This document shows, one piece after another, positions 1,291-43,357 of a DNA stretch of 64,000 nt (positions are counted from its first letter, which is position 1; every line of letters begins with the position of its first letter). The DNA is taken from NCBI GenBank assembly GCA_964195905.1, contig CAXMQV010000005.1:10326-74325 (forward strand), in the 5' to 3' direction. A model generated the notes under the pieces. The model had not been told where the DNA came from. It saw only the letters and a program-made list of their open reading frames with translations, and searched no databases. Both the position numbers and the translations under genes were made by a program. The stretch is from an uncultured Gammaproteobacteria bacterium (GTDB taxonomy: Bacteria; Actinomycetota; Acidimicrobiia; Spongiisociales; SHLN01).

Positions 1291-1482
1291 GTCACCAGTC
1301 GCCGGTCACCTGTCACCGGCCCTTCCCGGCTGCCCTTCGGGCAGCTTTCCTCTCTCGCTCCGCTTCGCTACACGAATCGCCTCCCGCGCCATCACCACAG
1401 GCCATTGGCGGGCACCCTCACTCGCTTGAAGGTGGACGCTCCTTTTCTTGAGGCCGGTGACCGGGGACAGGTGACAGGTGAC
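1291..1482. repeat. Inverted pair of heptamer arrays flanking a 136-nt spacer
   Basis: Left array 1291-1318 is GTCACCA GTCGCCG GTCACCT GTCACCG. Right array 1455-1482 is CGGTGAC CGGGGAC AGGTGAC AGGTGAC, its imperfect reverse complement. The spacer contains the hairpin gctgccc-TTC-gggcagc (1329-1345). Confidence 0.85.
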
Positions 1483-1572
1483 CGCTCAACGGCGGAGCCG
1501 TTGAGCTCCGACTAGCGGTCCCTAACCGCGAAAACTAGTCTTGAACCCGCTAACCCACGGAAGAAGGAACCC

Positions 1573-2052
1573 ATGCTGCAACGGATGATTCGCGCTGCCA
1601 AGCTCGATGTCGAGCTCTACGAGACCGTTGAGCACGATCGGGGCTACACCGGTGAAGCTTTCACCATCGTCGTCCTGACGGCTCTCCTGTCGGGTATCGG
1701 CCTATGGCTCCTGCCGGAGACCAAGTTCTGGGGCAGTGTGGTTGGCGGGCTCATCACCGCAATCATCGGCTGGGTCATCTGGGCCATCATCTCGAACATC
1801 ATCGGCAAGCAACTCGGCGGTACATCGGACACCGGCGAGATGCTCAGGGTGCTCGGCTACGCCTCCAGCCCAATGGCGCTCGGCATCGTGCCGGGGATCG
1901 GCCACGTGGTCGGGGGAGTGTGGGCCCTGGTAGCGGCCGTCGTGGCGATACGGCAGGGCCAGGACTTCACGACCGGCAAAGCCGTCGGCACTGTCGTGAT
2001 CGGTTGGATCGTCTACGTCGTCGGTCGCGGCATACTGGGCTGGATCTTCTAG
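1573..2052 (+). CDS. Yip1-family integral membrane protein
   Basis: 159 aa with 4-5 hydrophobic helices after an N-terminal LDVELYETVEHD segment typical of Yip1-domain proteins. SD-like gaaggaa sits upstream of the ATG. Confidence 0.6.
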   Translation: MLQRMIRAAKLDVELYETVEHDRGYTGEAFTIVVLTALLSGIGLWLLPETKFWGSVVGGLITAIIGWVIWAIISNIIGKQLGGTSDTGEMLRVLGYASSPMALGIVPGIGHVVGGVWALVAAVVAIRQGQDFTTGKAVGTVVIGWIVYVVGRGILGWIF

Positions 2053-2060
2053 GAGTCTGA

Positions 2061-2588
2061 TTGGAAACCCAGCGCCTCTGGCAGGCCCTTCAGCTAAAAC
2101 GCGACGCCTACGTCTGGATGCAGTTCAACCAGGCTGCCAACGGTGACGCCGTCGTCATCGTGGCCGCGGTCTACGCCGTCTGGATCCTGTTTGCGGTCGT
2201 GTTCAGCCTCGGGGGTCTGCCGTTCCTCGCCAAAGGCGACTTCGCCGTCTCCGGATTCATCTCGCTGTTCATCAGCGGTGGGTTCGGCTGGATCCTCGGT
2301 TCGGGGGCGGTGTATGCCATCAACACGTTTATCTTCGAATCCCGGGTCAATTTCGGGGCCATCGTTCCGATCACGGGTTATGCGCACGCCCCGCTCGTCC
2401 TGGTGCCGGTCATTTCGCGGCTGGGCTTGCCGGTCGGTGCAGCCCTCATCTTCGTTGGTATCTGGTCGGCGGCGATGATGGTGACCGGGTTCCAATCCAA
2501 CCTCGACATGACACAGGAGCGAGCCATCGGTGCCGCGCTGACCGCCATGTTCGTGTGGCTCTTGCTGGTCGGCATCCCCGGCTTTTGA
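2061..2588 (+). CDS. Yip1-like integral membrane protein, paralogue-like neighbour
   Basis: 175 aa with a TTG start, the same architecture as the upstream gene, and high GC3. Confidence 0.5.
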   Translation: METQRLWQALQLKRDAYVWMQFNQAANGDAVVIVAAVYAVWILFAVVFSLGGLPFLAKGDFAVSGFISLFISGGFGWILGSGAVYAINTFIFESRVNFGAIVPITGYAHAPLVLVPVISRLGLPVGAALIFVGIWSAAMMVTGFQSNLDMTQERAIGAALTAMFVWLLLVGIPGF

Positions 2589-3316
2589 TCAACTACCGGC
2601 TCGACTTCTCCTACGACGGGAGCGGGTTCTCCGGATACGCAACGCAACCAGAACTCCGGACGGTGCAGGGTGATCTCCAGGGCGCGCTCGGCAAGGTGCT
2701 CGGCGACGTTCGGACCCATGTAGCAGGCCGGACCGACGCGGGCGTTCATGCTCATCATCAGGTCGTCAACGTCGAGGCCGAGCGGGAGATCCCGGTGGAG
2801 AGGCTCCACCGGTCCCTCAACCGAATGCTCGGTCCCGAGATGGCCTTCCAATCGGTGACTATCGCCGACCCGGGTTTCCATGCCCGTTATCACGCCACCC
2901 GCCGCACGTATCGCTACTTCGTGCTCAATCGGCGCTGGCCGGATCCGTTCCGGGCCCGTACCAGCTGGCATTGTCGATATCCCCTCGATCTCGATCGCCT
3001 CAACGCCGTCGCCGGTCATCTCGTCGGAGAGCACGAGTTCGCATCGATGTGCCGCAAGCGGGAAGGCAAGAGCAGCCGCCGCACCGTGGTGGCCGCCGGG
3101 TGGCGAACCGCCCCCGACGACATCGTGATGTTCGAGATCTCCGCCGATTCGTTCTGTCATCAAATGGTGCGCTCGATCGTGGCGCTCTCGGTCGAGATCG
3201 GCCGCGGCAACGGTGAACCGGACCGCGTGCCGGAGATCCTGGCGGGGGAGGACCGCAACGCCGCCCGGGGCGCCGCCCCCTCCCACGGCCTGTTCCTGTG
3301 GCGGGTCGATTACTAG
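2585..3316 (+). CDS. truA: tRNA pseudouridine(38-40) synthase
   Basis: YRLDFSYDGSGFSGYATQP...GRTDAGVHA motif. The ORF is open from GTG 2555, but TTG 2585 overlapping the upstream TGA (TTGA) gives a canonical N-terminus. Confidence 0.9.
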   Translation: MINYRLDFSYDGSGFSGYATQPELRTVQGDLQGALGKVLGDVRTHVAGRTDAGVHAHHQVVNVEAEREIPVERLHRSLNRMLGPEMAFQSVTIADPGFHARYHATRRTYRYFVLNRRWPDPFRARTSWHCRYPLDLDRLNAVAGHLVGEHEFASMCRKREGKSSRRTVVAAGWRTAPDDIVMFEISADSFCHQMVRSIVALSVEIGRGNGEPDRVPEILAGEDRNAARGAAPSHGLFLWRVDY

Positions 3317-3319
3317 AGA

Positions 3320-3472
3320 GTCCCAAGTCCCAAGTCGCACGTCCCAAGCCGGAACGAGCAATCCTCGTTGGGTCTTGGGTCTTGGGTCTTGGGTCTTGGG
3401 TCTTGGGTCTTGGGTCTTGGGTCTTGGGTCTTGGGTCTTGGGTCTTGGGTCTTGGGTCTTGGGTCTTGGGTC
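3320..3472. repeat. Heptamer arrays: 4 x GTCCCAA-type (3320-3347), 20-nt spacer, 15 x TTGGGTC (3368-3472)
   Basis: Counted directly: perfect 7-nt period from 3368 to 3472 (105 nt). The left arm is GTCCCAA GTCCCAA GTCGCAC GTCCCAA and starts 4 nt after the truA stop. Confidence 0.95.
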
Positions 3473-3553
3473 TGGAGAGATCCACATTGCACACCCCGTG
3501 GATCCCGCTATCATTCACCCGTTCCCGCAACCTCTCTGGGGAGTTTTCACCGC

Positions 3554-5736: not shown

Positions 5737-5824
5737 GTCCCCGGTCCCCGGCGAGCCAACCGCCCACCGCCCACCGTCGACCGTCGACGTTCATCTCGCC
5801 AAGCGGTTGGCGGTTGGCGGTTTG
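5737..5824. repeat. Heptamer-phased element after glmM
   Basis: GTCCCCG x2, GCGAGCC, AACCGCC, CACCGCC, CACCGTC, GACCGTC (5737-5789), then the near-complementary GCGGTTG GCGGTTG GCGGTTT (5803-5823). The gcgagcc..aaccgcc caccg core recurs after trpS (24074-24101). Confidence 0.85.
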
Positions 5825-5879
5825 CCATCAGCCGAAGGCTGATTCAGTGATACGCTGTTTTCGTTGGTGCCGGAGATAC

Positions 5880-6020
5880 GGAAACAGCGCCCGACCTCGC
5901 TTTGCGAGGCGACGAGGAAGAGGGTCATCGAAATGTTCGGCGGATGCCCTCTCGGCCGCTCACGGTCGTAACCGACGGGAAGAAACCCCGGGAGCAATCC
6001 CGGTAACAGAGACCCGGCGG
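5880..6020 (+). ncRNA. glmS ribozyme: glmS glucosamine-6-phosphate-activated ribozyme
   Basis: Core reads A/GCGCC-CGACCUCGC-UUUG-CGAGG-CGACGAGGAAGAGGGUCAUCGAAAUGUUCGGCGGAUGCCCUCUCGGCC, matching the conserved AGCGCC...GACGAGGA...AUCGAA...UUCGGCGGAUGCC...CCCGG segments. A distal CCGGGA-GCAA-UCCCGG helix follows. It lies about 100 nt upstream of the glmS ATG. Confidence 0.8.
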
Positions 6021-6121
6021 ATGTGAGCCCACCTGGTGGGACCGAAGCCCCCTTGTGGGCCGAAGCCACCTGTGGCCGCGCACACCGCGCACACTCCGGC
6101 ACCTGAGAAAAGGAGCTAGAC

Positions 6122-7970: not shown

Positions 7971-7991
7971 GCTACCAGCTACCAGTCGCCA
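7971..7991. repeat. Heptamer array GCTACCA GCTACCA GTCGCCA after glmS
   Basis: Read directly, 14 nt after the glmS stop. Its reverse complement shares ctggtagc/aactgg words with the element at 42601-42628. Confidence 0.7.
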
Positions 7992-8107
7992 GTTTTCTCA
8001 GGGTCGGCGGAGGCTTCGGAGAGGCTTGCACCTTGGAGGGCTAGCCGCCCTCTGGAGTATCCCCAAGATGAAGCTTTCGTGAAAGGTGCTCTCGGTCTCT
8101 GACGGAC

Positions 8108-8162
8108 GCCAACCGCCAACCGCGATCTGAGTTCGGTGGGCGGTGCGCGGTGGGCGGTGCGC
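8108..8162. repeat. Heptamer inverted pair GCCAACC x2 / CGGTGGG-CGGTGCG x2
   Basis: Left arm 8108-8124, right arm 8134-8162. Hand folding gives one A.G mismatch per heptamer. Confidence 0.8.
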
Positions 8163-8180: not shown

Positions 8181-8552
8181 ATGAACATCGTTGGCATCGG
8201 GATTGATTTGGCCGAGATCGAACGGGTCGAGAAGCTCTACGGCAAGTATCCGGATCAGTTCCTGGCCCGGTGCTTCACCGAGCACGAGCAGGCCTACGCC
8301 GCCCGGTTTGCCAATCCTGCCCGGCGCCTGGCGGCCCGCTTCGCCGGCAAAGAAGCAGTCATGAAGAGCCTCGGCCGGGGTTGGCGCCAGTTGCGCTGGA
8401 AGGACATCGAGATCACCGGCGGCGGCAAGCCAACGGTTCGCCTGTTCGGTACGGCACTGGAGCGGGCCTCCCAGCTCGGCGTCACCGAGGTCCACGTGTC
8501 GATCACCCATACCGATGTGACCGCGATGGTGCTGGCGATTTCCGTCAGTTGA
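8181..8552 (+). CDS. acpS: Holo-[acyl-carrier-protein] synthase
   Basis: MNIVGIGIDLAEIERV...FAGKEAVMKSLG is typical AcpS. ATG 8181 preferred over the upstream in-frame extension from 8136. Confidence 0.88.
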   Translation: MNIVGIGIDLAEIERVEKLYGKYPDQFLARCFTEHEQAYAARFANPARRLAARFAGKEAVMKSLGRGWRQLRWKDIEITGGGKPTVRLFGTALERASQLGVTEVHVSITHTDVTAMVLAISVS

Positions 8553-8554
8553 GA

Positions 8555-8617
8555 GTTCACAGTTCACAGTTCACAGTTCACAGTCAGAGGGGTATCGACT
8601 GTTGACTGTTGACTGCT
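8555..8617. repeat. Heptamer arrays GTTCACA x4 then GACTGTT x2-3
   Basis: Starts 3 nt after the acpS stop. The cagtc/gactg core pairs across an 11-nt loop, and the outer repeats pair with one mismatch plus one G.U per heptamer. Confidence 0.85.
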
Positions 8618-8659
8618 TGATTGCCGGATGCCCATTCTCGGCACCGGTACTCTTGACCT

Positions 8660-10075
8660 GTGCATCTCGTGATAACCCCTGAAGAGTCGGCCGTGCTCGA
8701 TGCAGCCGCCACTGATCGGATTGAGGCGCTCATGGAGCGGGCCGGACTGTGGGTGGCGCTGGCTGCCGTCGAGATGGGTGCCGGGTATGGATCTCGGGTC
8801 GCCGTCCTGGCCGGTCCCGGCAACAACGGTGGTGACGCCTATGTGGCTGCCAAGTACCTTGTCGGGAGAGGGGCGAAGGTCGTCGTCTATGCCCGCGGGT
8901 CTCCCAAGGGCGAATATTCGGCCGCTCGCAAGGCGTCTTGCGCCGCCACCGCCGCCGGGGTGCGGGTCCTGCCCTTCGGCCTGCCGGAACCTGCCGATCT
9001 CGTGATCGACGGCCTTTTCGGCTCGGGATTTCACGGAGAGCTCCCGGACGATGTTCTCCCGTGGCTCACCCATACCGCCCCCGTCCTCGCCATCGATGTC
9101 CCCAGCGGGCTCAGCGCTGCGAACGGTACCGTGGCAGGAGAAGCATTTTACGGCGACCGCACAGTGACTTTCCACGCTCTCAAGGTCGGGCATCTCCTCG
9201 GAGAGGGACCAGAACGCTGCGGCCGGCTTGACGTTCGCGATATCGGCCTGGGTGGCGGATCTCCCGAACTTCGCCTGGTCGAAGAGAGCGACGCCATCGT
9301 CCCGAATCGATCTCGAACCGCCCACAAATGGTCGGCCGGCTCGGTGCTCGTTGTGGGCGGGTCTCCCGGCCTAACCGGAGCAGTCATGCTGGCGGCCTCG
9401 AGTGCCCTGCAAGCCGGCGCGGGCGCCGTGGCGGCGGCGGTACCCGGCCGGTGGCAGTCGGCCCTGGAAGCCATGAGCGCGGGAGTGATGACACGGGGGA
9501 TCGGGAACGGAGATCGCTTCGAGACGGCCGACGTGGCCGAGTTGCTGGAGCAGGCGGCTCGCTTCGACGTACTGGCGCTTGGTCCCGGCCTCGGCCTCGA
9601 GCAGGAGAAGCTCGTAGGCGAGCTCATGAGCCGCTGGGACGGCAAGTTGCTCCTCGACGCAGATGGCCTCAACGCGATAGTCGACCCTGGCCAGTTGCGG
9701 AGAGCGGGTGGCACCATCATCACCCCCCATGCCGGCGAATTCGGGCGTTTGACCGGCGATGAGGCCACCTATGGCGCCGCATCCAACCTGGCGAACGCCC
9801 AGGATGTCACGGTGCTCCTGAAAGGCAACCCGACCTTCGTGGCCGGCCCCGGGGCACCGTGGGTGATCACCGAAGGCGGTCCGGAGCTCGCCACCGTCGG
9901 GACCGGCGACGTTTTGACCGGGACCGTGGCGGCGCTGTGGGCCCGGGGGCTCGACGCCGTTGCTGCCGCCCACACCGGCGCCTTCTGGCATGGCCGGGCC
10001 GGGCAGTCGCTGGCCGACTGGACGGTCGTCACCGCCGAGGAGCTCGTCGGAGAGATCGGAGTGGTACTGAGATGA
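8660..10075 (+). CDS. nnr: Bifunctional NAD(P)H-hydrate repair enzyme (epimerase/ADP-dependent dehydratase)
   Basis: YjeF-N motif GPGNNGGDAYVAA. C-terminal carbohydrate-kinase part HKWSAGSVLVVGGS...GTGDVLTG. Confidence 0.88.
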   Translation: MHLVITPEESAVLDAAATDRIEALMERAGLWVALAAVEMGAGYGSRVAVLAGPGNNGGDAYVAAKYLVGRGAKVVVYARGSPKGEYSAARKASCAATAAGVRVLPFGLPEPADLVIDGLFGSGFHGELPDDVLPWLTHTAPVLAIDVPSGLSAANGTVAGEAFYGDRTVTFHALKVGHLLGEGPERCGRLDVRDIGLGGGSPELRLVEESDAIVPNRSRTAHKWSAGSVLVVGGSPGLTGAVMLAASSALQAGAGAVAAAVPGRWQSALEAMSAGVMTRGIGNGDRFETADVAELLEQAARFDVLALGPGLGLEQEKLVGELMSRWDGKLLLDADGLNAIVDPGQLRRAGGTIITPHAGEFGRLTGDEATYGAASNLANAQDVTVLLKGNPTFVAGPGAPWVITEGGPELATVGTGDVLTGTVAALWARGLDAVAAAHTGAFWHGRAGQSLADWTVVTAEELVGEIGVVLR

Positions 10076-11169
10076 GGCCGTCCTGGGTGGAAGTCGATCT
10101 CGAGGCGATCCGCCACAATGTTCGGGAGATCAGCCGGGCGGTTGCTCCAGCCGCGTTCTGCGCGGTGGTCAAGGCCGACGGTTACGGGCACGGCGACGTC
10201 CCGGTGGCCGAGGCTGCCCTCCAGGCGGGGGCTGAGTGGTTGGCCGTGGCGACCGTTACCGAGGGCCTGCGGCTCCGCGAGGCCGGCATCGAAGCTCCGA
10301 TCCTTCTCCTGTCTGAGGCCACGGAGGCGGACGTGGCCGCAATCATTGCTGAGCGTCTCACGCCCACTGTGTACTCGGACGGCTTCCTGAGCGCACTAGC
10401 GGCGGCTGCCGGCGATCCGTTGGCAGTGCACGTGAAGGTCGATACCGGCATGCACCGGGTGGGAACCGATGAAGCGACCGCAGCCGGCCTCGTCGCTCGC
10501 ATCGTGGCCGACCCCGGGCTGCGTCTGGGCGGCCTCTGGACCCACTTCCCGTCGGCGGAGGAAGACCCTGCCTTCACCGGCGCCCAGATCAAGCAACTGG
10601 CTCAGTTCGTCGACGCCCGGGTTGCGGCGGGAGCAGCCCCCGACCTGGTGCACACCGCCAACTCGGCCGGCGCCCTGCTCTATCCCGAAGCCCGATTCGA
10701 TATGGTCCGCATCGGCCTGGCCATGTATGGCTGTTATCCATCACCAGCCTGTCGCGAGGTGGTGACGCTGCAGCCGGCCATGCGGGTCGTCTCTCAAGTC
10801 GTTCATGTCAAGCGCCTCCCCGCCGGGTCCCGACCCGCCTACGGCCGCATCCGGCCATTGGCTGAGGAATCGACCGTGGTCACGGTCCCCATCGGATACG
10901 CCGACGGAATCACGAGGCGGCTGGCCAAGATCGGAGGGGAAGTCCTCATCGGTGGCCGGCGGCGATCCTATGCGGGCATCGTGACGATGGATCAGATAAT
11001 CGTCACCATGGGTGACGATTCGGTGCAGCTCGGCGACGAAGTCGTTCTGCTTGGCCGACAGGGAGACGAGGAGATCGACGCCGACGAATGGGCCGGTCGG
11101 CTGGATTCGGTCAGCTGGGAAGTCCTCTGCGGGTTCGGTCCCCGGCTTCCGAGGCGCTACCGAGGATGA
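10072..11169 (+). CDS. alr: Alanine racemase
   Basis: MRPSWVEVDLEAIRHNV...AVVKADGYGHG (PLP lysine motif). ATGA overlap with nnr. The ORF extension from 9859 is rejected. Confidence 0.92.
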   Translation: MRPSWVEVDLEAIRHNVREISRAVAPAAFCAVVKADGYGHGDVPVAEAALQAGAEWLAVATVTEGLRLREAGIEAPILLLSEATEADVAAIIAERLTPTVYSDGFLSALAAAAGDPLAVHVKVDTGMHRVGTDEATAAGLVARIVADPGLRLGGLWTHFPSAEEDPAFTGAQIKQLAQFVDARVAAGAAPDLVHTANSAGALLYPEARFDMVRIGLAMYGCYPSPACREVVTLQPAMRVVSQVVHVKRLPAGSRPAYGRIRPLAEESTVVTVPIGYADGITRRLAKIGGEVLIGGRRRSYAGIVTMDQIIVTMGDDSVQLGDEVVLLGRQGDEEIDADEWAGRLDSVSWEVLCGFGPRLPRRYRG

Positions 11170-12056
11170 CACTCACCTCCGTTCCCGGTATCGGGGTGGG
11201 TCACTGGACCGACCTGGTCGGCCGTACCGGAGTAACCGTGGTGACGCTCCCCGAGCCAAACCGGGTCGTCGCCGAGGTCCGCGGGGCGGCGCCGGGAAGT
11301 CGCGAGCTGGCCCTGCTGGCCCCTGGAATGCGAGTCGAGGAGATTCAGGCACTCGTTCTCACCGGGGGAAGCGCTTTCGGGTTGGCTGCCGCCGACGGCG
11401 TCGTTCGGGCTCTAGAGACAGAGGGCCGCGGCCATCCGACCGCACGGGGACCGGTTCCGATTGTCCCGACCGCCGTCATCTACGACCTGTTGGCCGGAGA
11501 TCCACAAGCCCGTCCGGGGCCTGAAGAGGGGGCGGCCGCCTATGCGGCCGCCGGCACGATTCCGGTGGCCATGGGCTCGGTCGGCGCTGGGACCGGAGCC
11601 CTGGTGGCCGGGTGGAGAGGGCCTGAGCATTTCCGACCGGGAGGTATTGGCTCCGCCAGCACTCGCTCGGGCCCGGCCACCGTCGGCGCCCTGGCCGTTG
11701 TCAATGCGGTCGGGGATATATTCACGCTCGAAGGCGAACCGCTCACGGGAGGGTCACTGCGATCCGGTCCACCGGCGGCGCTTCCGGCCCCGCTCGAGAA
11801 CACCACATTGATCGTGGTCGCCACCAATGCCCGTATCGAACGTAATGACCTCCTGCGGCTGGCTGTGCGGGCCCAGGATGCCGTTGCCGCCTGCGTACGG
11901 CCCGGCCACACTCGATATGATGGCGACGTCGCCTTTGCCGTCTCGTGCGGCGAGGCAGAGGCGGACCTCGATGCGATCGGAGAAGCGGCGTTCGCGGTCG
12001 TCGGCGATGCCATCGAGGCGGCCATACGATCGGCGGACAGCAAGGAAGAGGGATGA
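11166..12056 (+). CDS. P1/S58 (DmpA-type) family aminopeptidase
   Basis: VPGIGVGHWTD...TGVTVV...LTGGSAFGLAAADGV pattern. ATGA overlap with alr. Confidence 0.7.
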   Translation: MTLTSVPGIGVGHWTDLVGRTGVTVVTLPEPNRVVAEVRGAAPGSRELALLAPGMRVEEIQALVLTGGSAFGLAAADGVVRALETEGRGHPTARGPVPIVPTAVIYDLLAGDPQARPGPEEGAAAYAAAGTIPVAMGSVGAGTGALVAGWRGPEHFRPGGIGSASTRSGPATVGALAVVNAVGDIFTLEGEPLTGGSLRSGPPAALPAPLENTTLIVVATNARIERNDLLRLAVRAQDAVAACVRPGHTRYDGDVAFAVSCGEAEADLDAIGEAAFAVVGDAIEAAIRSADSKEEG

Positions 12057-12679: not shown

Positions 12680-13131
12680 GCGTCGAAGTGCTGTGCGCCA
12701 CTTCCGCAGATACGATGGCGGTCGGCCGCCGGCTGGCCGGGCTTCTCCGGGTCGGTGATGTCGTGCTCATCGACGGTGATCTGGGCGTCGGCAAAACCAC
12801 CTTCGTGGCCGGGCTCGCCGAAGGTTTGGGCGTCGACGAGCCAATCACCAGCCCGACATTCATCCTCATGCGGACGTACCCCGGGCTCCTGCCCCTCACT
12901 CACGCCGATGTGTATCGGCTCGACACGCTGGCCGAGATTGAAGATCTCGAGCTCACCGAAGCCTCGTCCGACGGTGTGCTCGCAGTCGAGTGGGGAACCG
13001 CCATCGAACAGTGGATGCCCGCCGACCACCTGGTGGTTCGTATCCGGCTCGCTGAGGGCGAGAATCGTCAGATTGAGCTCATTCCCTACGGAAACTGGGG
13101 CACCCGTCCTCTCGGAGAAGTCACCGCATGA
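12676..13131 (+). CDS. tsaE: tRNA t6A37 biosynthesis ATPase TsaE
   Basis: GDLGVGKTTFVAGL...SPTFILMRTY...HADVYRL. GTGA overlap with udg. Confidence 0.88.
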   Translation: MSVEVLCATSADTMAVGRRLAGLLRVGDVVLIDGDLGVGKTTFVAGLAEGLGVDEPITSPTFILMRTYPGLLPLTHADVYRLDTLAEIEDLELTEASSDGVLAVEWGTAIEQWMPADHLVVRIRLAEGENRQIELIPYGNWGTRPLGEVTA

Positions 13132-15324: not shown

Positions 15325-15340
15325 CAGGTCACCTGTCACC
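15321..15340. repeat. Palindrome gtgacaggtCacctgtcac built from GGTCACC/TGTCACC heptamers, overlapping the tsaD stop
   Basis: 19-nt odd palindrome checked base by base. The same heptamer words recur at 1291, 19933, 26907, 30352 and 43321. Confidence 0.85.
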
Positions 15341-15437
15341 GGCCAGACCCACCAGGTCGCTTCTTGCTGGCAGCCGGCAACTGGTGGCCGCTCTGTCGGG
15401 TATCGATCGCAGCCTCCAATACCTCGCGAAAAACCTG

Positions 15438-17556: not shown

Positions 17557-17562
17557 GTGGGA

Positions 17563-17590
17563 CTGTCAACTGTCAACTGTCAACTGTCTA
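17563..17590. repeat. Heptamer array CTGTCAA x3 + CTGTCTA
   Basis: The last unit contains the stop codon (cta, 17588-17590) of the minus-strand gene. Confidence 0.85.
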
Positions 17591-19180
17591 CTCCTCCGAA
17601 TTGTCCCCTTCGGCCAGGAGCTCATCGAAGCCCTCAACGACTTGCTGAAGGTCGTCGTCGAGAACGAGGGAGGGATGGCCGGGGCTTACGGGGCGGCCTG
17701 CTTGCAGGAGCAGCCAATCGAAGTCGCCCTCGCGGCCGCGGCGACGGCGGCGTCGACGGGCTCCGACCGATCGGGAGCCGACCCCGAGGACGGCGCCGGC
17801 GCCAAATAGCGTCCAAACCAGAACCCCGACCTGAGGTCCCTCCATGGTGGGATCGAAGAAGGCATTGACGAGGAGCGCGGTCATCGAAAGGATCAGCCAG
17901 AACGCCAGGCTGGCGCGTCCATCCTCACCGAGCTCGCGAAACTGGCGGCGCGCCCGGATCAGGCTGAGGTACCAGCTGGTGAACATTGCCACCCAGAGAA
18001 CGATTCCTACCAATCCCATCCGAGCCAGCACCGACAGGTGCGAGTTGTGCGGATTCCGGAGCGGACTTGACCGATCCGTGTCGGCGACGCCGTAGCGCAG
18101 CGCGACATTCTCGCCGAACCCGAAGCCCGTCAAAACCCGTTCGGGTATGAAAACGTCCTCAACAACGAGTCCCCATAGGTTGAGCCGCCATTGTGTGGTG
18201 TTGTCGAATTGGCCTCCGGAGGTCGCCTCGTCTGTCACCGATTGGATGTTCTCGATTACCTGTTCGACGGACAGTTCTCGGCGATCTAGCTGGAACTTGA
18301 CGTCGAGGGCGGCCGCCAGGATGGCGACCATGATGGCGAGGGCCATGACCCCCAGCATGACGCTTCGAGCGTGACGGGCCGTCGCGAAGACCACCGTCAG
18401 GATGAGGAATGCGGCCAGGAACCCGGACCGACTCTGGGTCCCGACAGACACAACGAGGAGCAGACCCACCAGGGTTAGGCCGGTCGCCCGTCGGCGGAGC
18501 TCCTTGGATGCCGAAGGGCCGATGACGATGATGAAGAAGGCCAGGGCAATGGCGACGTTGACTGCGATGTTGGCCGTCTTGTGGGCGGTCAGGCGGGTCG
18601 ACGAGTCCGGAATTCGGGGGCCGATCGATGCCTGGGCGAAGGCGAAACGAATCAGCATGATCGTGAAGAAGAACGGGATGAAACGGGTGAGGCGGTCGAC
18701 CGTCTCGTCCCACACGCTGGGCTTGTACAGCAGGAGGACCCCGCTGATAAGGGCGAACCCTCCGTAGTACCAGAGGGCGCTATCCCGGACCGCATCGATT
18801 CCCCAGGTGCCGAAGCCCTCAAAGGCGAGTGCGAACCCCCACAGCATGAACAGCATGAGAAACTGAATTGGCCGGCTCACCCGAATGAGGCGTCCGAGAT
18901 GAGGTGTTTGGAGAATCACCCACAGCCCGAACACGAGCGCGATCTCCCCGACGAAGATCGGAGTTCCGGGAATGTGGATCCAAGCGAAGGCGCGATCGAA
19001 GAGCAGATAGCCGGTCAGGATCAGCCCCATCACCCGGCTGAGGAGGAGGAAGTTGTGGTCGAGTCGGCGCCCAGCCACCGATCGTCGGGACCGGGGCGGA
19101 ATGTAGACCGGGGGTGGTTGGGGAGTCTGTGTCGTCATGGGGCGCGCCGGGGTCATCGTACCGAGAATCCGGGCCTCCAC
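17588..19180 (-). CDS. O-antigen ligase/polymerase (Wzy_C-like) family polytopic membrane protein
   Basis: About 10 or more hydrophobic helices, a central VGTQSRSGFLAAFLIL motif typical of the family, and an Arg-rich acidic tail. Start may be M1, M9 or M15. Confidence 0.55.
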   Translation of the reverse strand: MEARILGTMTPARPMTTQTPQPPPVYIPPRSRRSVAGRRLDHNFLLLSRVMGLILTGYLLFDRAFAWIHIPGTPIFVGEIALVFGLWVILQTPHLGRLIRVSRPIQFLMLFMLWGFALAFEGFGTWGIDAVRDSALWYYGGFALISGVLLLYKPSVWDETVDRLTRFIPFFFTIMLIRFAFAQASIGPRIPDSSTRLTAHKTANIAVNVAIALAFFIIVIGPSASKELRRRATGLTLVGLLLVVSVGTQSRSGFLAAFLILTVVFATARHARSVMLGVMALAIMVAILAAALDVKFQLDRRELSVEQVIENIQSVTDEATSGGQFDNTTQWRLNLWGLVVEDVFIPERVLTGFGFGENVALRYGVADTDRSSPLRNPHNSHLSVLARMGLVGIVLWVAMFTSWYLSLIRARRQFRELGEDGRASLAFWLILSMTALLVNAFFDPTMEGPQVGVLVWTLFGAGAVLGVGSRSVGARRRRRRRGREGDFDWLLLQAGRPVSPGHPSLVLDDDLQQVVEGFDELLAEGDNSEE

Positions 19181-19879: not shown

Positions 19880-20006
19880 TCCCGGGCTCCCTCCTATTGA
19901 TAGTGGCCGCGGCATCGGTGAAGCATATCTCCGGTCACCGGTCACCCGCCAGAGGGGCGGCACGCCAGCCGGGAGCGGAGAACACCACTTGCCGTAGGCT
20001 TCTCCG

Positions 20007-22971: not shown

Positions 22972-22977
22972 TACGCA

Positions 22978-23044
22978 GTTCACAGTTCACAGTTCACAGC
23001 CGGAACCTGCGGCGATAACTGCTGACTGTCAACTGTCAACAGTT
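22978..23044. repeat. Heptamer inverted pair GTTCACA x3 / CTGTCAA x2 with a 25-nt spacer
   Basis: Left arm 22978-22998, right arm 23024-23044. Pairing leaves one C.C mismatch per heptamer. The spacer starts gccggaac, as does the spacer at 3348. Confidence 0.85.
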
Positions 23045-24074: not shown

Positions 24075-24137
24075 CGAGCCGACCGCCAACCGCCCACCGA
24101 CAAGTTGCGGTCGACGATGGGCGGTGGGCATCTTTTC
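24074..24137. repeat. Heptamer-phased element after trpS, ending in a T run
   Basis: GCGAGCC GACCGCC AACCGCC CACCGAC (24074-24101), then GCGGTCG ACGATGG GCGGTGG (24107-24127), then catcttttcg. Related to the element after glmM. Confidence 0.8.
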
Positions 24138-26905: not shown

Positions 26906-26906
26906 C

Positions 26907-26927
26907 GGTCACCTGTCACCGGTCACC
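26907..26927. repeat. Heptamer array GGTCACC TGTCACC GGTCACC, 2 nt after the guaA stop
   Basis: Read directly. Confidence 0.85.
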
Positions 26928-27018
26928 GGCAACGCCTGAAGCGTTGCTAGCTATCAGGCGTCCGGCGCTCGCTTTCAGGCATCCGTTGATTGCGTTCTCC
27001 CCACTGGTGGGAACGCTA

Positions 27019-27053
27019 ATGCCGGTTGTCTGATGCCGGTTGTCTGGTGCCGG
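27019..27053. repeat. 14-nt direct repeat in 7-nt phase: ATGCCGG TTGTCTG ATGCCGG TTGTCTG GTGCCGG
   Basis: Read directly. Lies upstream of (or inside the 5' extension of) the CheA-like gene. Confidence 0.8.
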
Positions 27054-30351: not shown

Positions 30352-30365
30352 TGTCACCGGTGACC
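30352..30365. repeat. TGTCACC/GGTGACC palindrome (gtcaccggtgac)
   Basis: 12-nt perfect palindrome, 13 nt after the stop of the REC-GAF gene. Confidence 0.8.
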
Positions 30366-30420
30366 GGCTAGAACTACACCCGTGGAATTCCTGTTCGGGA
30401 ACTCTCGTATACTCGCCCCC

Positions 30421-33138: not shown

Positions 33139-35220
33139 TTGGATACGCGGGCTGACGAGCGACCGGATGACAGCATCGGTGCGGACCTGCCGGTGGAACC
33201 GGCCGGGTCCCGTCCATATCCGGACATGCGCCCCCTGCTCGCCGTTGTGGGGGCATTTGGCCTCGCCTACTACTTCGCTTTCACCCGCCTGGTACGCGGT
33301 GATGTCTTCAACTCCTACCCGTTCATCTCCGCCGATGGATTCGACTGGCTCGTCGAGGGCCTGGCGGTAGCCCGCTGGTTTGATGGGATCGCCGTTCCCG
33401 AACTCCCAGCGGCTCGTAGTCCCGGCTTTGTCAGCGTGACGTTCGCCGATTTCCATATTGGAGCAGACGGCGGTGTGATGTTCGCCGTCATCGCTGCGGC
33501 GGTGGTCGCCTCGCTGGCGGCGATGCTTGTTCTGGCCCGATGGAACCGGGTGCCGCGCTATCAGGCCGGGGTCGTGGTTCTCGCCTTCGCCCTCTCTCCA
33601 CTCGGGTACTACCGGATGTGGATTCTCTCTGATCAGATCGCCGCTGCTCTGCTCGCCGTAGCGGCGGTCGCGCTTTACCCGTATGTCACCAGGGGAAGCC
33701 GGTGGTGGCTGGGCCTGGCAACCCTCGCAGCCGCTCTGGGGGGCGCTACCCAGCTCTACGGGCTGATCGGGTTCGGGGTGGCGGGTGGATGGGTGTTTGT
33801 CGTCTCAATGTGGCGTCGGAAGCCCGACTATCTGCTGGCCGGTGCCCTCGTGGCGGCGCCGGCGACAACACTCGCGCTCTCGAAAGTCTGGTTGGGTCAG
33901 GTGCCGCACAGCAGCGTGCCACCTCAACTCGGCTTGATCGAGCTCAGCTTTGACATGCTCGGGTTCTATGTCAACGCCTGGTCGTTCGCGTTCCTCGCCC
34001 TTCTGCCACTTCTCGTCGTGCTCTTCATCTATCGACGGCACCAGGTGGTGAGATCCCCACTTCTGACCGGCTATTGGCTCAGCGTGCTGGTGCTGATGGC
34101 GGGGACGTTCTTCTACCAGTTCGAGGAATTCCGGTTCACCATTCCAACCGGTTCGATGCTCGGCATTGCCATCGTGGCGAGCCTGTCGGGCGAGCACCCT
34201 TTGCCACGGCCGCGGGAACTGATGGTGGTCACAGCAACGCTTGCCATCATCGTGGGTCTCACTTTGGCGCCGGCCAGCTACTGGATTCCGAGATGGTCGG
34301 AAGTCAGGCTGGATCCATCCGGCACCTATTTCTCCCGTCTGATCACCGTCGGGCCGGTGGATCGGTTCTCGGTTGGCCCCTCTTGCGATTTCGACCGGGT
34401 CTGCCGGGGTATGGCGATCCCTGCCGGTGTCACCGACCACGAGCGCGCCCTCTTTGCTATCTACCGCCATCTCGCCAATGCCGACCCCTCGACATCGGTT
34501 GAGGATTTCCTGGAAGGGGTATACAGCGGCCTCTTCCTGGTGCGCAATACCAACGATTGTTGCGTAGCCGAAACCTCACTCTCGTTCGGGCTGACCGGTG
34601 ACCGGCCGATTAGCGGCAACTGGGATGGGCGGGCGGTCGGAACCCTATTCGGAACCGACACACCGGGACTCTTCCGGAGCGGCGTGTGGCTGCTCGTGAC
34701 TTCGGTTGTGGCACGCCAGGCCGACCTGGAGTTCAGATTCGGTGAAGCCGGGGATGTGCCCGTTGTCGGGGATTGGGATGGCGACGGGATCGATACCGTC
34801 GGAGTGTTCCGCGGCGGGGTCTGGATGCTTCGGAATTCGAATTCGGCGGGGCCGGTCGATGTCGAGTTCAGGTTCGGTGAAGTCGGGGACGTGCCGGTTT
34901 CAGGCGATTGGGACGGGGATGGGGTCGACACGGCCGGTGTCTACCGCAACGACCGTTGGCTGCTCAGGAATTCCAACGCGGAGGGTCCGCCCGACGTCTC
35001 GCTGGTTATGGGCGGCGACCTCGGCCGGCCGGTGGTGGGGGATTGGAATGGCGATGGTGCCGACACGATCGGCCTCTTCGACCAGGGATTCTGGAGGGTG
35101 CGTAATTCGACTACCACCGGTCCTGACGATCTCCAGTTCCATTTTGGCGCCTGGGGTGACCTACCCCTCACCGGTGACTGGGATGGTGATGGAGTCGACA
35201 CCATTGGTGTTGCACGGTAG
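33139..35220 (+). CDS. Polytopic membrane protein with five C-terminal GDWDGDG (FG-GAP/VCBS-like) repeats
   Basis: About 10 hydrophobic helices (residues ~30-400), then 5 repeats of ~45 aa: FRFGE.GDVPV.GDWDGDG.DT.GV.R.G.W.LRNSN. Start is TTG 33139 or ATG 33226. Confidence 0.7.
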   Translation: MDTRADERPDDSIGADLPVEPAGSRPYPDMRPLLAVVGAFGLAYYFAFTRLVRGDVFNSYPFISADGFDWLVEGLAVARWFDGIAVPELPAARSPGFVSVTFADFHIGADGGVMFAVIAAAVVASLAAMLVLARWNRVPRYQAGVVVLAFALSPLGYYRMWILSDQIAAALLAVAAVALYPYVTRGSRWWLGLATLAAALGGATQLYGLIGFGVAGGWVFVVSMWRRKPDYLLAGALVAAPATTLALSKVWLGQVPHSSVPPQLGLIELSFDMLGFYVNAWSFAFLALLPLLVVLFIYRRHQVVRSPLLTGYWLSVLVLMAGTFFYQFEEFRFTIPTGSMLGIAIVASLSGEHPLPRPRELMVVTATLAIIVGLTLAPASYWIPRWSEVRLDPSGTYFSRLITVGPVDRFSVGPSCDFDRVCRGMAIPAGVTDHERALFAIYRHLANADPSTSVEDFLEGVYSGLFLVRNTNDCCVAETSLSFGLTGDRPISGNWDGRAVGTLFGTDTPGLFRSGVWLLVTSVVARQADLEFRFGEAGDVPVVGDWDGDGIDTVGVFRGGVWMLRNSNSAGPVDVEFRFGEVGDVPVSGDWDGDGVDTAGVYRNDRWLLRNSNAEGPPDVSLVMGGDLGRPVVGDWNGDGADTIGLFDQGFWRVRNSTTTGPDDLQFHFGAWGDLPLTGDWDGDGVDTIGVAR

Positions 35221-37499: not shown

Positions 37500-38252
37500 A
37501 TGAGACGAGCCATCGTCGTGGCCGTGAGTACTGCGCTGTTGATGATACTGTTCGGCGGCGTTGCGGCCGCCAACTCCTCCATCGACGGCGACGCAACTGA
37601 GGCCGATTCGGTCGTTCGAATCGACGATGACGTTGAGGCGAGCCACATCTGGAAGCGCTGTCGCCACTTGTTCGGTGACGAGGACCTGACCGCGGTTGCC
37701 AAAGAGCGCTGCCGGCAGCTGTGGAAGCGGTGGTGTGAGGCCCATCCGGATTCCCGCCGGTGCCATCGCCCGGATCCACCCCCACCGCCACCGCCGTGCT
37801 ACGACCGGTTGACCGATCACCGATGCATACCGATTCCGTGTCTCAGTGTCGATCGGTTGGTTGACCGGCGCTGCATTCCGAACCCATGTCTCATCGATCA
37901 GCTGGCCGACCGGCTGTGCATCCCTGATCCGTGCCGAATCGCGGATTTGGCAGCGGACCGGGTGTGCGTGCCCGATCCGTGTCTGCGAGCAGACGGAATC
38001 CTCCCGTGCGTGCCCGACCCGTGTCTGCGAGCCGATGGAATCATCACGTGCGTACCCGACCCCACGGAAGTCCCCAAGGTCCGCCCCATCGACCGGCCGG
38101 TCGACCGTCCGATCGATGTCCCACCGGATCGTCCCTCCGACAAGCCACCGGAGGTTCGGCCGAAGGGTCGGACCCCCGACCGCACAACCGACCGTCCAAT
38201 CGATCGAGTAGGAAATGACTTTCACCTTCGAGCTCTCGACGCCGATTCCTAG
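37500..38252 (+). CDS. Secreted protein with six tandem C-[IV]-P-x-P-C repeats and a Pro/Asp/Arg-rich tail
   Basis: Signal-like [26 protein letters not shown]. Repeats [14 protein letters not shown] / [14 protein letters not shown] / [14 protein letters not shown] / [14 protein letters not shown] / [12 protein letters not shown] / [10 protein letters not shown] (DNA 37800-38060, 42-48-nt units). SD-like aaggaaagg upstream. Confidence 0.6.
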
Positions 38253-41498: not shown

Positions 41499-41620
41499 GC
41501 CAGCTCCCGCTCTTTACCCTGTTCGACCCTATCAACGTGGCACGACGAACAACAATTGGCAAACCGCCTCGCAGGCATTTCTCAAGCGAGCCCGTTCGAG
41601 TTCCGATTACTCAGTCATGC

Positions 41621-42454
41621 ATGGAGGAACACCCAATGGCTGAACTGTCCGGCGACCTCGGGTCCTTTGGGCTCGACCGCGTGCTAGAGCTGCTTGCCGA
41701 CGCCGGCAAGGATGGTGAGCTACGGGTTCATTCTGAGCGGCTGGACGGCCGCATCTTGCTCCAGGGCGGTCGGGTCGCCTATGCCACAACCGCCACCGGC
41801 TCAGAGACCGTCGAGGAGCTCGATGCTCTGCTCGAGCGGTACCAGGCCGATGTGTTTGCGAGTGACCTGCCGGCAACTCTCGAAGAGGTGCTCGAGGAGC
41901 AGCTCACCGAGGTTGCCTACTTCATGATGGCGCTCGGATCCGGTTCGTTCGAGTTCGCCGGATCAGAGCAACCCGGCCCCGATGATGTTCATACGATCAC
42001 GGTTTCCGAGCTACTTGAGAAGGTCGATGCCCGGACCGAGGAGTGGCGCCTCATTCGTCGGGTCATCCCGACTAACGACCAGCCGTTCTGGCTCGTCTCC
42101 CAGCTACCGGTCGGGCGTGCCGACGCGACGCTCAGCGCCGGACAATGGGCCCTGCTGGCCGCCGTCGGCTCCGGAGCATCGGTAACGGAAGTAGCGGCGG
42201 CGCTCAATCTCTACGAGTTCCATGCCGCCGGCGCCTTCGCACGCCTCGTCGAGGAAGGTCTGCTCGAATCGACCGACAAGGCGGAGCACCCCACCCGCCC
42301 CGAGCAGCTCGAGGAACCCGGAGAACACCAGGAACCGGGAATGCCCGATCTGCGCCCGACCGACGAAGCGGTGACATTCTCAACTCAGGATCTCAGCTCA
42401 GATGAGATCAACGAGGTCATCCGCAACATGGGTCGCGGCATCTTCCCCGGCTAG
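41621..42454 (+). CDS. DUF4388 (PatA-N-like) domain protein with an acidic C-terminal half
   Basis: LSGDLGSFGLDRVLELLADAGKDGELRVHSERLDGRILLQGGRVAYA. Start is ATG 41621 or 41636. Confidence 0.6.
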   Translation: MEEHPMAELSGDLGSFGLDRVLELLADAGKDGELRVHSERLDGRILLQGGRVAYATTATGSETVEELDALLERYQADVFASDLPATLEEVLEEQLTEVAYFMMALGSGSFEFAGSEQPGPDDVHTITVSELLEKVDARTEEWRLIRRVIPTNDQPFWLVSQLPVGRADATLSAGQWALLAAVGSGASVTEVAAALNLYEFHAAGAFARLVEEGLLESTDKAEHPTRPEQLEEPGEHQEPGMPDLRPTDEAVTFSTQDLSSDEINEVIRNMGRGIFPG

Positions 42455-42600
42455 CGATTCTCTACCGGCCGCGTTCATTTCCGCGGCGCGATCGTACTGC
42501 CACACTCGACGACGCCGGTTGGCTCTCGCGTGGCGCGGAGAGCTCCGAGCAGCGGGGATGTGGTCGATCACTCTGCGCAGCTTCGTGCTGACGCGCGTCC

Positions 42601-42628
42601 AACTGGTAGCCGGCAACTGGTAGGTACC
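42601..42628. repeat. Heptamer-phased AACTGGT AGCCGGC AACTGGT AGGTACC
   Basis: The 14-mer agccggcaactggt (42608-42621) is identical to 15372-15385, downstream of tsaD. Confidence 0.75.
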
Positions 42629-42763
42629 TGATAGACGTCGATTCACGGTTCGCGAACGCCGGGAACGGCGCGGGCCGTCAACGTTTTGTCCGGGATGCCG
42701 ATAACTGCTGAAACAGTTCTCGCGCCGACGGGATCACCTGCGGGGGCGAGGAGAGGAGTTGGC

Positions 42764-43312
42764 ATGGACTACGTGTACGGAGTGCTCACCAATCCTTCCC
42801 GGGAAGAGGACGAGCTGGTCGTGCTGCCCGAGGACAGCGCCTTCGAGCTCGCCGAGATCAGAGGTCTGCTCCGGTGCCGGACCTGGGGCGATCTGCGGGC
42901 CAAGGCCTCTCCTGCGCGGTATCGAGAGCTGCTCACAAAGTGCGGATACAACGAATATGCCGAGCTGTCCGCCGAGCTGGATCTGGGCGGGGGGCTCAGG
43001 GGTGCGCTAGAGATGGCCCTGGCCGAGTTCGATCCGCGGGCGGTCCCGCCCGGCGACGACGAGCCCTTCCACGCCCACGAGGTTGCCGTCGACCCCGACA
43101 ATGACTACCCGCCCGATCCCCATTACCTCCAGAACCTGCTCGTTTCACAACAGGTCGTCGACCGGTGGGGGGAGCGGTACGAAACCCCCCGTCACCTACC
43201 GGGCGCCGTGTTGCGGGCCGCCGATCTGGCCGATGTCATCAACTCCCTTGAAGCCGAAGGGCACCGGTGTCGCGAAGACCCTGACCTCATTCGGGCCGGA
43301 ATCTCGGAATAG
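42764..43312 (+). CDS. Hypothetical acidic protein (182 aa)
   Basis: ATG 42764 preceded by SD gaggagaggag, with high GC3. I recognise no family. Confidence 0.6.
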   Translation: MDYVYGVLTNPSREEDELVVLPEDSAFELAEIRGLLRCRTWGDLRAKASPARYRELLTKCGYNEYAELSAELDLGGGLRGALEMALAEFDPRAVPPGDDEPFHAHEVAVDPDNDYPPDPHYLQNLLVSQQVVDRWGERYETPRHLPGAVLRAADLADVINSLEAEGHRCREDPDLIRAGISE

Positions 43313-43320
43313 GCGACGCC

Positions 43321-43357
43321 GGTCACCTGTCACCTGTTACCTCCCCTCCGGGGGAGG
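43321..43357. repeat. GGTCACC TGTCACC TGTTACC array running into the hairpin cctcccc-tccg-ggggagg
   Basis: Starts 9 nt after the stop at 43312. Confidence 0.8.

Follow-up and report, generated by a model that had tools for sequence, protein, structure and literature searches.

Why should a tandem repeat in a bacterial genome have a unit of 7 nt, and do arrays of such heptamers do anything? These questions are raised by a 64,000-nt stretch of contig CAXMQV010000005.1 (GenBank assembly GCA_964195905.1, positions 10,326 to 74,325 of the forward strand; hereafter the window, meaning the whole stretch), in whose intergenic DNA short arrays of heptamers follow one gene end after another. The window and 80 related loci bear on both questions. 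We found that these period-7 arrays are very probably heptanucleotide long simple sequence repeats (SSRs), akin to the short tandemly repeated repetitive (STRR) sequences of cyanobacteria, that change in whole units, and that they are a heritable, genome-wide trait of certain clades of Acidimicrobiia. With somewhat more confidence than doubt, we further propose that they are slippage-driven heptamer microsatellites built into hairpins of the 3' flank, with a probable role in forming, protecting or insulating mRNA 3' ends.

Heptamer arrays past gene ends in the window

The window has a G+C content of 63-68%, and the genomes closest to it are all metagenome-assembled genomes (MAGs) of Acidimicrobiia, with GlmS identity of up to 91%. 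A gene map made from codon statistics, with gene names checked by Pfam, gives 89.6% coding DNA and the order rpoA-rplQ-Yip1-truA-rplM-rpsI-glmM-(glmS ribozyme)-glmS-acpS-nnr-alr-...-tsaD-groES-groEL; 6.3 kb of intergenic DNA was analysed. A sequence-only reading had reported period-7 arrays here, and both Tandem Repeats Finder (TRF) and independent scans recover them at the same coordinates, as about 23 arrays spread over 16 intergenic sites (of the 59 tandem repeats listed by TRF, about 25 have period 7). In a uniform scan of the window, arrays were present at period 7 and there were none at periods 8-13. Under stringent settings the 6.3 kb of intergenic DNA holds 16 period-7 arrays, against a mean of 0.43 (maximum 3) in 200 dinucleotide shuffles, and none of period 8, 9 or 10. 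All 17 stringent arrays in the window are intergenic and none lies in coding sequence (CDS).

The arrays reuse a small set of heptamers, with GTCACC found at seven sites, CAGTTCA/ACTGTYR at three and CCMACCG at three. Each of the three main vocabularies exceeds its shuffle expectation 20- to 50-fold: the window contains 14 matches to the GTCACCNGTCACC pattern (0.70 expected), 11 to CCMACCGCCMACCG (0.34 expected) and 8 to ACTGTYRACTGTYR (0.17 expected), which bears out the idea of related array families within one genome. Chance or low complexity as the source, already doubted from the sequence, is ruled out by the shuffles and by the comparison with other periods. Assembly artefact is ruled out as well, because the same arrays are also present in independent assemblies (NCBI MAG, Logan and ENA).

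All 11 genes that had been named as having an array next to their stop codon indeed have one (Table 1). Two generalisations held only in part: arrays were said usually to form inverted pairs, and about half of the window sites do (7 pairs, about 8 singles); and the strict 7-nt period applies generally but not at 42601-42625, where the period is 14 nt.

Where two arrays of the window face each other, they fold in minimum free energy (MFE) predictions as long helices with a 1x1 mismatch every 7 nt, and the four periodic mismatches that had been worked out by hand (U.U, C.C, A.G and C.U) are correct by sequence and appear as 1x1 internal loops in the MFE folds. Overall, dG runs from -22 to -94 kcal/mol, and array pairs reach z-scores down to -5. 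The fold past truA has a dG of -73.7 (z -5.0), that past acpS -26.2 (with five Watson-Crick pairs, one G-U pair and one C.U mismatch per 7 nt of the stem at 8546..8620), and that in the spacer upstream of trpS -31.8 (z -4.2). The groEL spacer has a z of -9 and also contains strong ordinary hairpins. Single arrays (GTCACC-type at 1291, 26906 and 43322; ACTGTCA at 17562) have the stop codon on one side and an ordinary GC hairpin on the other. One mismatch per 7 nt is thus true of the window pairs, but it is not a rule: in other genomes many array pairs are perfectly complementary, so the periodic mismatch is better seen as a trace of each arm's own seed unit than as a design rule.

The sequence-only reading had also pictured a dispersal of related elements. 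The glmM and trpS elements do have a longer core in common (CGAGCC...AACCGCCCACCG...GTCGACG), and the core GGTCACCTGTCACC is found at four sites, with stretches in common of up to 18 nt. When the flanks of same-heptamer arrays were compared, only 4-5 of 81 pairs exceeded the 99th percentile of the null, and these are explained by neighbouring repeat units. The flanks are therefore not homologous, and what the arrays have in common is the heptamer or a core of 16-20 nt and no larger mobile unit, which speaks against dispersal of whole elements. The 14-mer AGCCGGCAACTGGT is indeed identical at 15372 and 42608, but this is weak evidence of dispersal because 104 different 14-mers recur in the window; the 23 that recur within intergenic DNA all come from repeat families or from AGCCGGCAACTGGT. 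At the Rfam gathering threshold, the glmS ribozyme was found and no other RNA family.

Table 1. Array sites and associated hairpins in the window (positions count from the first nucleotide of the window; x gives the number of units)
Feature	Position	Strand	Context
GTCACC-type array TGTCACC AGTCGCC GGTCACC TGTCACC	1291..1319	+	23 nt past rplQ stop; left arm of long-range pair with 1455-1482 (fold 1285-1490: dG -89.4, z -4.8)
Small GC hairpin GCTGCCC-TTC-GGGCAGC, then TTTCC	1329..1345	+	Enclosed by the two GTCACC arrays; looks like a terminator
Inverted GTCACC-type array GGTGACC GGGGACA GGTGACA GGTGACC	1455..1482	-	
AGTCCCA array, ~4 units	3319..3348	+	2 nt past truA stop; left arm of hairpin
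TTGGGTC x15, units 100% identical	3368..3473	+	Right arm; U.U mismatch every 7 nt
GTCCCCG x2, GCCMACC x3 and ACCGTCG x2.3 arrays	5737..5788	+	From 3 nt past glmM stop; upstream of glmS ribozyme
GCGGTTG x3	5803..5822	+	Inverted partner of CCAACCG array
GCTACCA x2, then GTCGCCA	7971..7985	+	13 nt past glmS stop; without partner
CGCCAAC x2.4 facing CGGTGGG/CGGTGCG x4	8107-8123 / 8134-8162	+	Hairpin directly upstream of acpS start
CAGTTCA x5 facing GACTGTT x3	8546-8584 / 8597-8620	+	1 nt from acpS stop; first, degenerate unit contains the stop, and the TRF array starts inside it
CAGGTCACCTGTCACCGG	15325..15342	+	Directly past tsaD stop (1-2 nt)
ACTGTCA x4.4 (minus strand GACAGTT)	17562..17592	-	Overlaps stop of Wzy_C gene (minus strand); between that stop and a strong bidirectional GC hairpin
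CCGGTCA x2.3	19931..19946	+	Divergent (5'/5') spacer
CAGTTCA x3.4 facing ACTGTCA x2.3	22976-22999 / 23025-23040	+	C.C mismatch per unit; divergent spacer upstream of trpS
GCCRACC x3.7 facing GATGGGCGGTGGGC, then TCTTTTC	24078-24103 / 24115-24128	+	3 nt past trpS stop
CGGTCAC x3.4	26906..26929	+	Directly past guaA stop (0-2 nt), then separate hairpin GCAACGCC-TGAA-GCGTTGC
TGTCACCGGTGACCGG, palindromic, not tandem	30352..30367	+	12 nt past stop of REC-GAF gene
CAACTGGTAGCCGG CAACTGGTAGG, 14-nt period, not a strict heptamer array	42601..42625	+	Has AGCCGGCAACTGGT in common with 15372
GTCACCT x3	43322..43342	+	9 nt past stop at 43312, then hairpin CCTCCCC-TCCG-GGGGAGG

Arrays are unevenly spread over the window, being found in 12 of 17 spacers with a gene 3' end in the first 43.5 kb and in 0 of 5 between 43500 and 64000 (Fisher p=0.01). 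The array-rich part consists of housekeeping genes (ribosomal proteins, groESL, guaAB, trpS), and the array-free part codes for a 2021-aa protein and mostly unannotated genes. Four arrays crowd the 5737-5822 region. A heptamer hairpin on the glmM side stands just 5' of the glmS ribozyme (RF00234, 95.6 bits, 5875-6029, + strand, upstream of glmS), and just to the 3' side of the ribozyme is a repeat with a period of 18 nt (6026-6075). The spacer between guaA and a cheA-like gene also has a period-21 repeat (26946-26985) and a period-14 repeat, ATGCCGGTTGTCTG x2.5 (27019-27053), to which TGCCGGA/CCGGATG heptamer arrays in two relatives (L032 and L071) are related. A GCTCGCTTCGCTCGC-like motif recurs directly past stops or before arrays in several genomes (after-glmS spacers of L012, L025, L053 and L065; window 1350-1370 and 26960-26975; L032 9514-9620) and may be another intergenic element common to them. 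Longer tandem repeats within CDS, at 34729-34973, 37964-38062 and 61139-61313, have units of 135, 42 and 51 nt, all multiples of 3, and are unrelated to the heptamer arrays.

Inheritance and turnover among relatives and strains

Pooling the window with the 80 loci, which were taken from around glmS orthologues, gave 1.30 Mb, of which about 12% is intergenic. This pool contains 185 period-7 arrays in intergenic DNA and 87 in CDS, whereas the corresponding counts are 6 and 24 for period 8, and 38 and 594 for period 6. Exclusion from coding DNA is what one would expect of a unit whose 7-nt steps shift the reading frame. Spacers with a 3' end hold 1.3-3.5 arrays per kb, and divergent spacers 0.47 per kb. 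In co-oriented spacers a median of 17 nt separates the stop from the start of the first array (within 10 nt in 32 of 78), and a median of 72 nt separates the end of the last array from the next start. The intergenic, 3'-end-concentrated placement noticed in the window is therefore found in the larger sample too: arrays accumulate in the transcribed 3' flank, from the stop codon or a few nucleotides beyond.

Inverted pairing also extends beyond the window. Of 57 pairs of neighbouring arrays in one spacer, 16 are inverted complements with no more than one mismatch per 7, compared with 1.4% of random pairs. An inverted double unit lies within 160 nt of 37% of arrays, compared with 5-9% in reversed or complemented controls. 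About a third of arrays thus face an array of a complementary or nearly complementary heptamer. An identical heptamer is found in different spacers in 6.1% of comparisons within a genome and in 0.4% between genomes (18.9% and 3.2% with one mismatch allowed). Each genome, in other words, has a private heptamer vocabulary.

In a tree of GlmS, the array-rich genomes fall into two neighbouring (sister) clades, one containing the window and the other consisting of ten genomes with 3-11 arrays each. Most other Acidimicrobiia have no arrays, including long-read MAG contigs of 0.3-2.7 Mb. Among related genomes, particular gene ends go on carrying arrays as the heptamer is replaced. In seven of eight related genomes the truA-rplM spacer has arrays, built from AGTCCCA/TTGGGTC in the window and L012; GTGGTCA, GTCGCCR and TGACAGT in L011; AGGCAAT in L032; GCGTACT in L010; and CGACTGC and CTGCTTC in L013 and L014. 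In L009 this spacer is short and has no array. Directly after glmS, a strict period-7 run is present at 11 of 79 loci; by eye, about 20 of the roughly 45 loci with a sizeable spacer carry repeat arrays there, mostly inverted pairs, and the unit differs in almost every genome. After glmS, GCTACCA/GCTACCG is found in the window and again in L065 and L053, and L032 has a degenerate form of it. All relatives also have a conserved motif upstream of rplM, GCTATCATTCCTCCGTTCCCGCAACCTC (window 3490-3553; spacers of L009-L014 and L032), which is probably the rplM-rpsI leader or promoter; the arrays, inserted further upstream, do not disrupt it.

The window was compared with contigs nearly identical to it, taken from several Logan and ENA assemblies and from two NCBI MAGs. 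Over 13.2 kb, a strain with 99.6% identity (L001) differs by 23 substitutions and 5 indels, and each of these indels falls within an array and has a length divisible by 7 (-70, -7, -7, -14 and +7 nt). The largest makes the TTGGGTC array (3368-3473) 10 units shorter, a difference in the longest array that could be a short-read collapse. The arrays past glmM (5737-5788) have one unit fewer in both L001 and L002; the 8107..8162 hairpin has one unit fewer in L001; and past acpS the left arm of L001 is 14 nt shorter and its right arm 7 nt longer. In another strain, L004, the 1455-1482 array has lost one unit and gained one, with no net change in length. No indels were found in the 18.5-33.9 kb regions against near-identical contigs (99.9-100% identity). 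Since all five indels are whole 7-nt multiples inside arrays, the arrays are true variable-number tandem repeats (VNTRs), one of the possibilities raised from sequence alone. They gain, lose and reshuffle whole 7-nt units, which is consistent with replication slippage or unequal exchange. Two contigs break at arrays: the short-read MAG contig L002 starts inside one (window 3392), and L090 starts between the two arms of a pair (window 23004). Arrays fragment short-read assemblies and may for this reason be under-counted in MAGs.

The same design is found in some unrelated genomes (ANGP1 and unclassified MAGs), sometimes with period 9. In ANGP1-type MAGs, inverted 9-nt-period arrays, GTCTACNNN facing GTAGACNNN, lie directly past the glmS stop (L079 ~9830-9930; L083 ~10060-10160), which means that there are lineages in which repeat-armed hairpins are not bound to a 7-nt unit. 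A metagenome scan for GGTCACCTGTCACCGG did not find the window's locus; its matches were mostly chance hits in coding sequence (for example in a conserved LVTCHRRE motif), together with some genuine arrays from other organisms. Five metagenome contigs of about 50% G+C (L119, L121, L181, L198 and L204), from an unrelated organism of lower G+C, carry several perfect hairpins each, CCGGTGACAGGTGACCC-TTTTG-GGGTCACCTGTCACCGG, whose two heptamers are those of the window's GTCACC family. Metagenome contigs of 67% G+C (L185, L153 and L125) have nested long-range inverted heptamer arrays (in L185 at 9853-10060, 11219-11455 and 12708-12828), an outer AGCAGSA/CTTCCYG pair enclosing an inner CCGGTGA/CGGTCAC pair, which resemble the window's 1291/1455 pair and the 135 nt that it encloses. 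Exact-protein look-ups with AcpS and GroEL gave no match.

Heptamer repeats known from other bacteria

The sequence-only reading did not recognise a described repeat family and allowed that a match to one would count against it. In part it does: the class is already described, as heptanucleotide SSRs or STRR sequences, and the GGGAATC repeats of Xanthomonas have the same architecture. The arrays show the features of heptanucleotide long SSRs and STRR-like repeats throughout, namely tandem 7-nt units (about 3 or more), an excess of period 7, a non-coding position, whole-unit polymorphism between strains, and several heptamer families reused in one genome. No account of arrays like these in Acidimicrobiia turned up in our literature searches.

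In most genomes rich in SSRs, those of Actinobacteria among them, the commonest long SSRs have a heptanucleotide unit, and a polymerase-slippage origin tied to a 7-nt contact has been proposed for them (Mrazek 2007, as summarised in PMC4679880 and PMC4692102). Like the arrays of the window, these long SSRs are dominated by period 7, are sporadic in phyletic spread and lie outside coding regions, since the unit is not a multiple of 3 (Mrazek, Guo & Shah 2007, as summarised in PMC4679880 and PMC4692102). That work is a statistical genome survey; as summarised, it describes no stop adjacency, inverted-pair hairpins or genome-specific vocabularies.

Heptamer repeats of Xanthomonas (GGGAATC) and Nostoc (GGGGA(C/T)T) lie 0-50 bp from a stop codon or overlap it, between co-oriented open reading frames (ORFs) (Rehm et al. 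2015, PMC4692102). There are 70-75 inverted pairs per genome, their length varies between species, and in Xanthomonas transcripts start or end at the repeats more often than at controls (PMC4692102). The placement described by Rehm et al. (2015) is also that of our arrays, which lie within 50 bp of a stop, form inverted pairs and are rare between divergent ORFs. Both sets consist of heptamers repeated in tandem from a few to about 15 times and are strongly intergenic, with frequent inverted pairs able to form stem-loops, and in both, length differs among related genomes while site and type are kept; Xanthomonas further resembles the window's host in its high GC (65%). The two differ in that Xanthomonas and Nostoc have one G-rich motif that forms G-quadruplexes (G4), whereas the window has at least five unrelated heptamers, of which only TTGGGTC is G4-capable. 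The host here also belongs to the Actinomycetota (Acidimicrobiia), and the arms often have a regular mismatch.

The name STRR and the details of these sequences reportedly go back to work by Mazel and colleagues in 1990. Like the window arrays, cyanobacterial STRR sequences comprise several heptamer families that are tandem, dispersed in one genome's non-coding DNA and lineage-restricted; the host phylum and the heptamers are different. We therefore do not assign the arrays to STRR sequences in the strict sense, as their host belongs to the Acidimicrobiia and is not a heterocystous cyanobacterium, and their heptamers are unlike STRR1-3. ACTGTTG at 8597 is the reverse complement of CAACAGT, which we take to be the STRR3 unit, but this is probably coincidence. 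Three heptanucleotide families are on record from Calothrix PCC 7601 (cited in PMC4692102).

TAACTGA direct repeats, found in marine Beggiatoaceae and some Cyanobacteria and Bacteroidetes (MacGregor 2015, PMC4679880), are likewise intergenic tandem heptamers, patchy across phyla, with 2-6 and up to 43 copies. Unlike the arrays described here, they consist of one heptamer, lie just upstream of start codons and include one indirect repeat among 169 sets (PMC4679880). Our arrays follow stops and often pair. Repetitive extragenic palindromic (REP) sequences and bacterial interspersed mosaic elements (BIMEs), and the U-tract-less ("I-shaped") terminator hairpins of actinobacteria, are also extragenic and found just past stops, sometimes in inverted pairs, and form hairpins; protection of mRNA 3' ends or termination has been proposed as their role. 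REPs are imperfect palindromes of about 20-40 nt that are linked to REP-associated tyrosine transposases (RAYTs). Neither these elements nor the I-shaped hairpins have the tandem units or the unit-step length variation of the window arrays.

What appears to be new, beyond the known class, is the host lineage, the combination of inverted-pair architecture with five or more unrelated heptamers in a single genome, the clade-level phyletic pattern, and the persistence of positions while heptamers are replaced.

Weighing a proposed role at mRNA 3' ends

How might slippage-driven arrays come to act at gene ends? We propose that each arm is amplified from its own seed unit, so that a single mismatch between seeds would be repeated every 7 nt, and that the transcript or single-stranded DNA would then fold into a long helix; single arrays would serve to space an ordinary GC hairpin from the stop codon. 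Such structures could act like the U-tract-less 3' hairpins common in Actinobacteria, helping to form or protect mRNA 3' ends or to insulate neighbouring operons. Changes in unit number might tune the effect, and any single array would be expendable. The periodic mismatches may be tolerated or even favoured, long perfect palindromes and long perfect double-stranded RNA being unstable in bacteria. A link to transcription is suggested by the tight stop adjacency, the rarity in divergent spacers, the Xanthomonas precedent and a strand bias: the first array after a stop has more C than G on the sense strand in 37 of 50 cases and the reverse in 13 (p=0.001).

A number of results weigh against this proposal. 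Array hairpins have no U-tracts, apart from the TCTTTTC tail of the one at 24078-24128, and the window shows no enrichment of canonical terminators, with counts of 7 against 11.4 and of 14 against 9.7 in shuffles. In a G-U asymmetry test the more stable fold is as often the sense as the antisense one (13 and 13, p=0.94), and so there is no sign that selection works on the RNA rather than on the DNA. The spacers of some arrays are 5' or divergent (19931, 22976/23025 and 8107/8134), and the two arms of a pair can differ greatly (4 and 15 units). L009, closely related to the window, lacks arrays and has shorter spacers at the corresponding positions, so arrays are dispensable. The array-poor relatives have no excess structure after their stops, and genome-specific vocabularies are not explained by slippage alone.

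Some further identities were tried and rejected. No predicted canonical terminator in the window coincides with an array, and neither a direct U-tract behind a GC hairpin nor an excess of such terminators was found, so the arrays are not canonical intrinsic terminators. That they replaced ancestral stop-adjacent hairpins is not generally true, as the 50 nt past stops in array-poor relatives resemble shuffles (mean z -0.24); L009 and L010 do have plain hairpins after glmS. Nor do the units serve as backup stop codons in all frames, since by inspection the sense-strand units contain no stop codons.

Rapid turnover in unit steps is also what would be expected if nothing were selected. On this account, the main rival, which we consider somewhat unlikely, a lineage-specific property of replication or repair makes 7-nt slippage frequent, arrays survive where they are harmless, mainly in 3' flanks, and inverted pairs arise by template switching at quasi-palindromes, so that the arrays are neutral or selfish mutational debris. 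It would accommodate the all-or-none pattern among clades and the bare spacers of L009, fold stability that carries no RNA-strand signal, missing U-tracts and unequal arms, and it agrees with the polymerase-slippage idea of Mrazek 2007 (as summarised in PMC4679880). Random seeding does not, however, predict that identical heptamers are so much more common within genomes than between them (6.1% and 0.4%). Debris should also be strewn evenly along the tolerated 3' spacer, whereas many arrays start 0-3 nt past the stop, and it would account neither for the sense-strand bias towards C nor for GCTACCA being kept after glmS at only 63-87% GlmS identity. The longer cores could instead hint at REP/BIME-like elements, or at miniature transposable elements with inverted repeats (MITEs), copied by a transposase such as a RAYT: GGTCACCTGTCACC is one of several 16-20 nt cores found at more than one site, the glmM and trpS elements both span CGAGCC to GTCGACG around AACCGCCCACCG, and REPs, too, occur after stop codons as inverted pairs. 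We regard this as very improbable, as flanks of same-heptamer arrays are not homologous beyond the partner arms, no terminal inverted repeats or target duplications were seen, what varies is the number of units and not the presence or absence of a fixed element, and no transposase stands beside any array in the window by gene map and Pfam. A REP, BIME or MITE identity is accordingly rejected for the window, where we found no fixed-length unit, homologous ends or flanks, or transposase.

Private vocabularies without flank homology, a strict 7-nt register and clade-level inheritance would suit binding sites for a heritable trans-acting protein that controls termination, antitermination or mRNA fate, with the vocabulary co-evolving with the protein. 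Candidates include cold-shock-domain proteins (single-strand site of about 6-7 nt), another binder of single-stranded RNA or DNA (ssRNA, ssDNA), and Rho loading on a C-rich first array; Rho's known binding geometry is not 7 nt. Csp, S1 and CsrA have been proposed for TAACTGA heptamers (PMC4679880), and first arrays are C-rich and G-poor on the sense strand. Yet the heptamers within one genome (GTCACCN, CAGTTCA, CCAACCG, AGTCCCA, GCTACCA) have no consensus beyond composition, ANGP1-type genomes have the same architecture at period 9, and no candidate protein was identified, all of which makes such binding sites improbable. Of a broader kind is the conjecture, unlikely as we judge it, that a trans-acting factor either reads heptamers in register or makes and copies them by templated repeat addition or conversion. 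This could be an ssRNA- or ssDNA-binding protein acting on stop-adjacent hairpins, the arrays being the cis part of a heritable, lineage-specific system, and it would explain at once the use of 7 nt across phyla, the private vocabularies without flank homology and the clade-wise presence or absence. G-quadruplex regulation of the GGGNATC type known from Xanthomonas and Nostoc is barely credible for the set as a whole. The placement is the same as that of the repeats in PMC4692102, TTGGGTC x15 at 3368-3473 has GGG every 7 nt and matches a G4 pattern, and related genomes have GGGATTA, GGGAATC/GGGAAAC, GGGCGTC and GGGTGAC arrays. But a G3 tract per unit over at least 4 units is found in that one window array only, out of about 23; neither strand of the GTCACC, CAGTTCA, ACTGTCA and GCTACCA arrays can form G4, and arrays of the CCMACCG type could do so partially at best.

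For heptamer arrays in general, the Acidimicrobiia are a new host at the phylum level, and they constrain any explanation. The trait is inherited by clades, and single arrays turn over between species and even strains; the same gene ends (truA-rplM, after glmS) keep arrays as the heptamer changes; and each genome reuses a small private vocabulary without flanks in common. In practice, the arrays break short-read assemblies, with contigs ending inside them, and they would be good VNTR markers for strain typing in these uncultured lineages. If they are indeed functional 3'-end elements, as we propose, they would constitute a tunable, mutation-prone layer of operon insulation in bacteria without canonical terminators.

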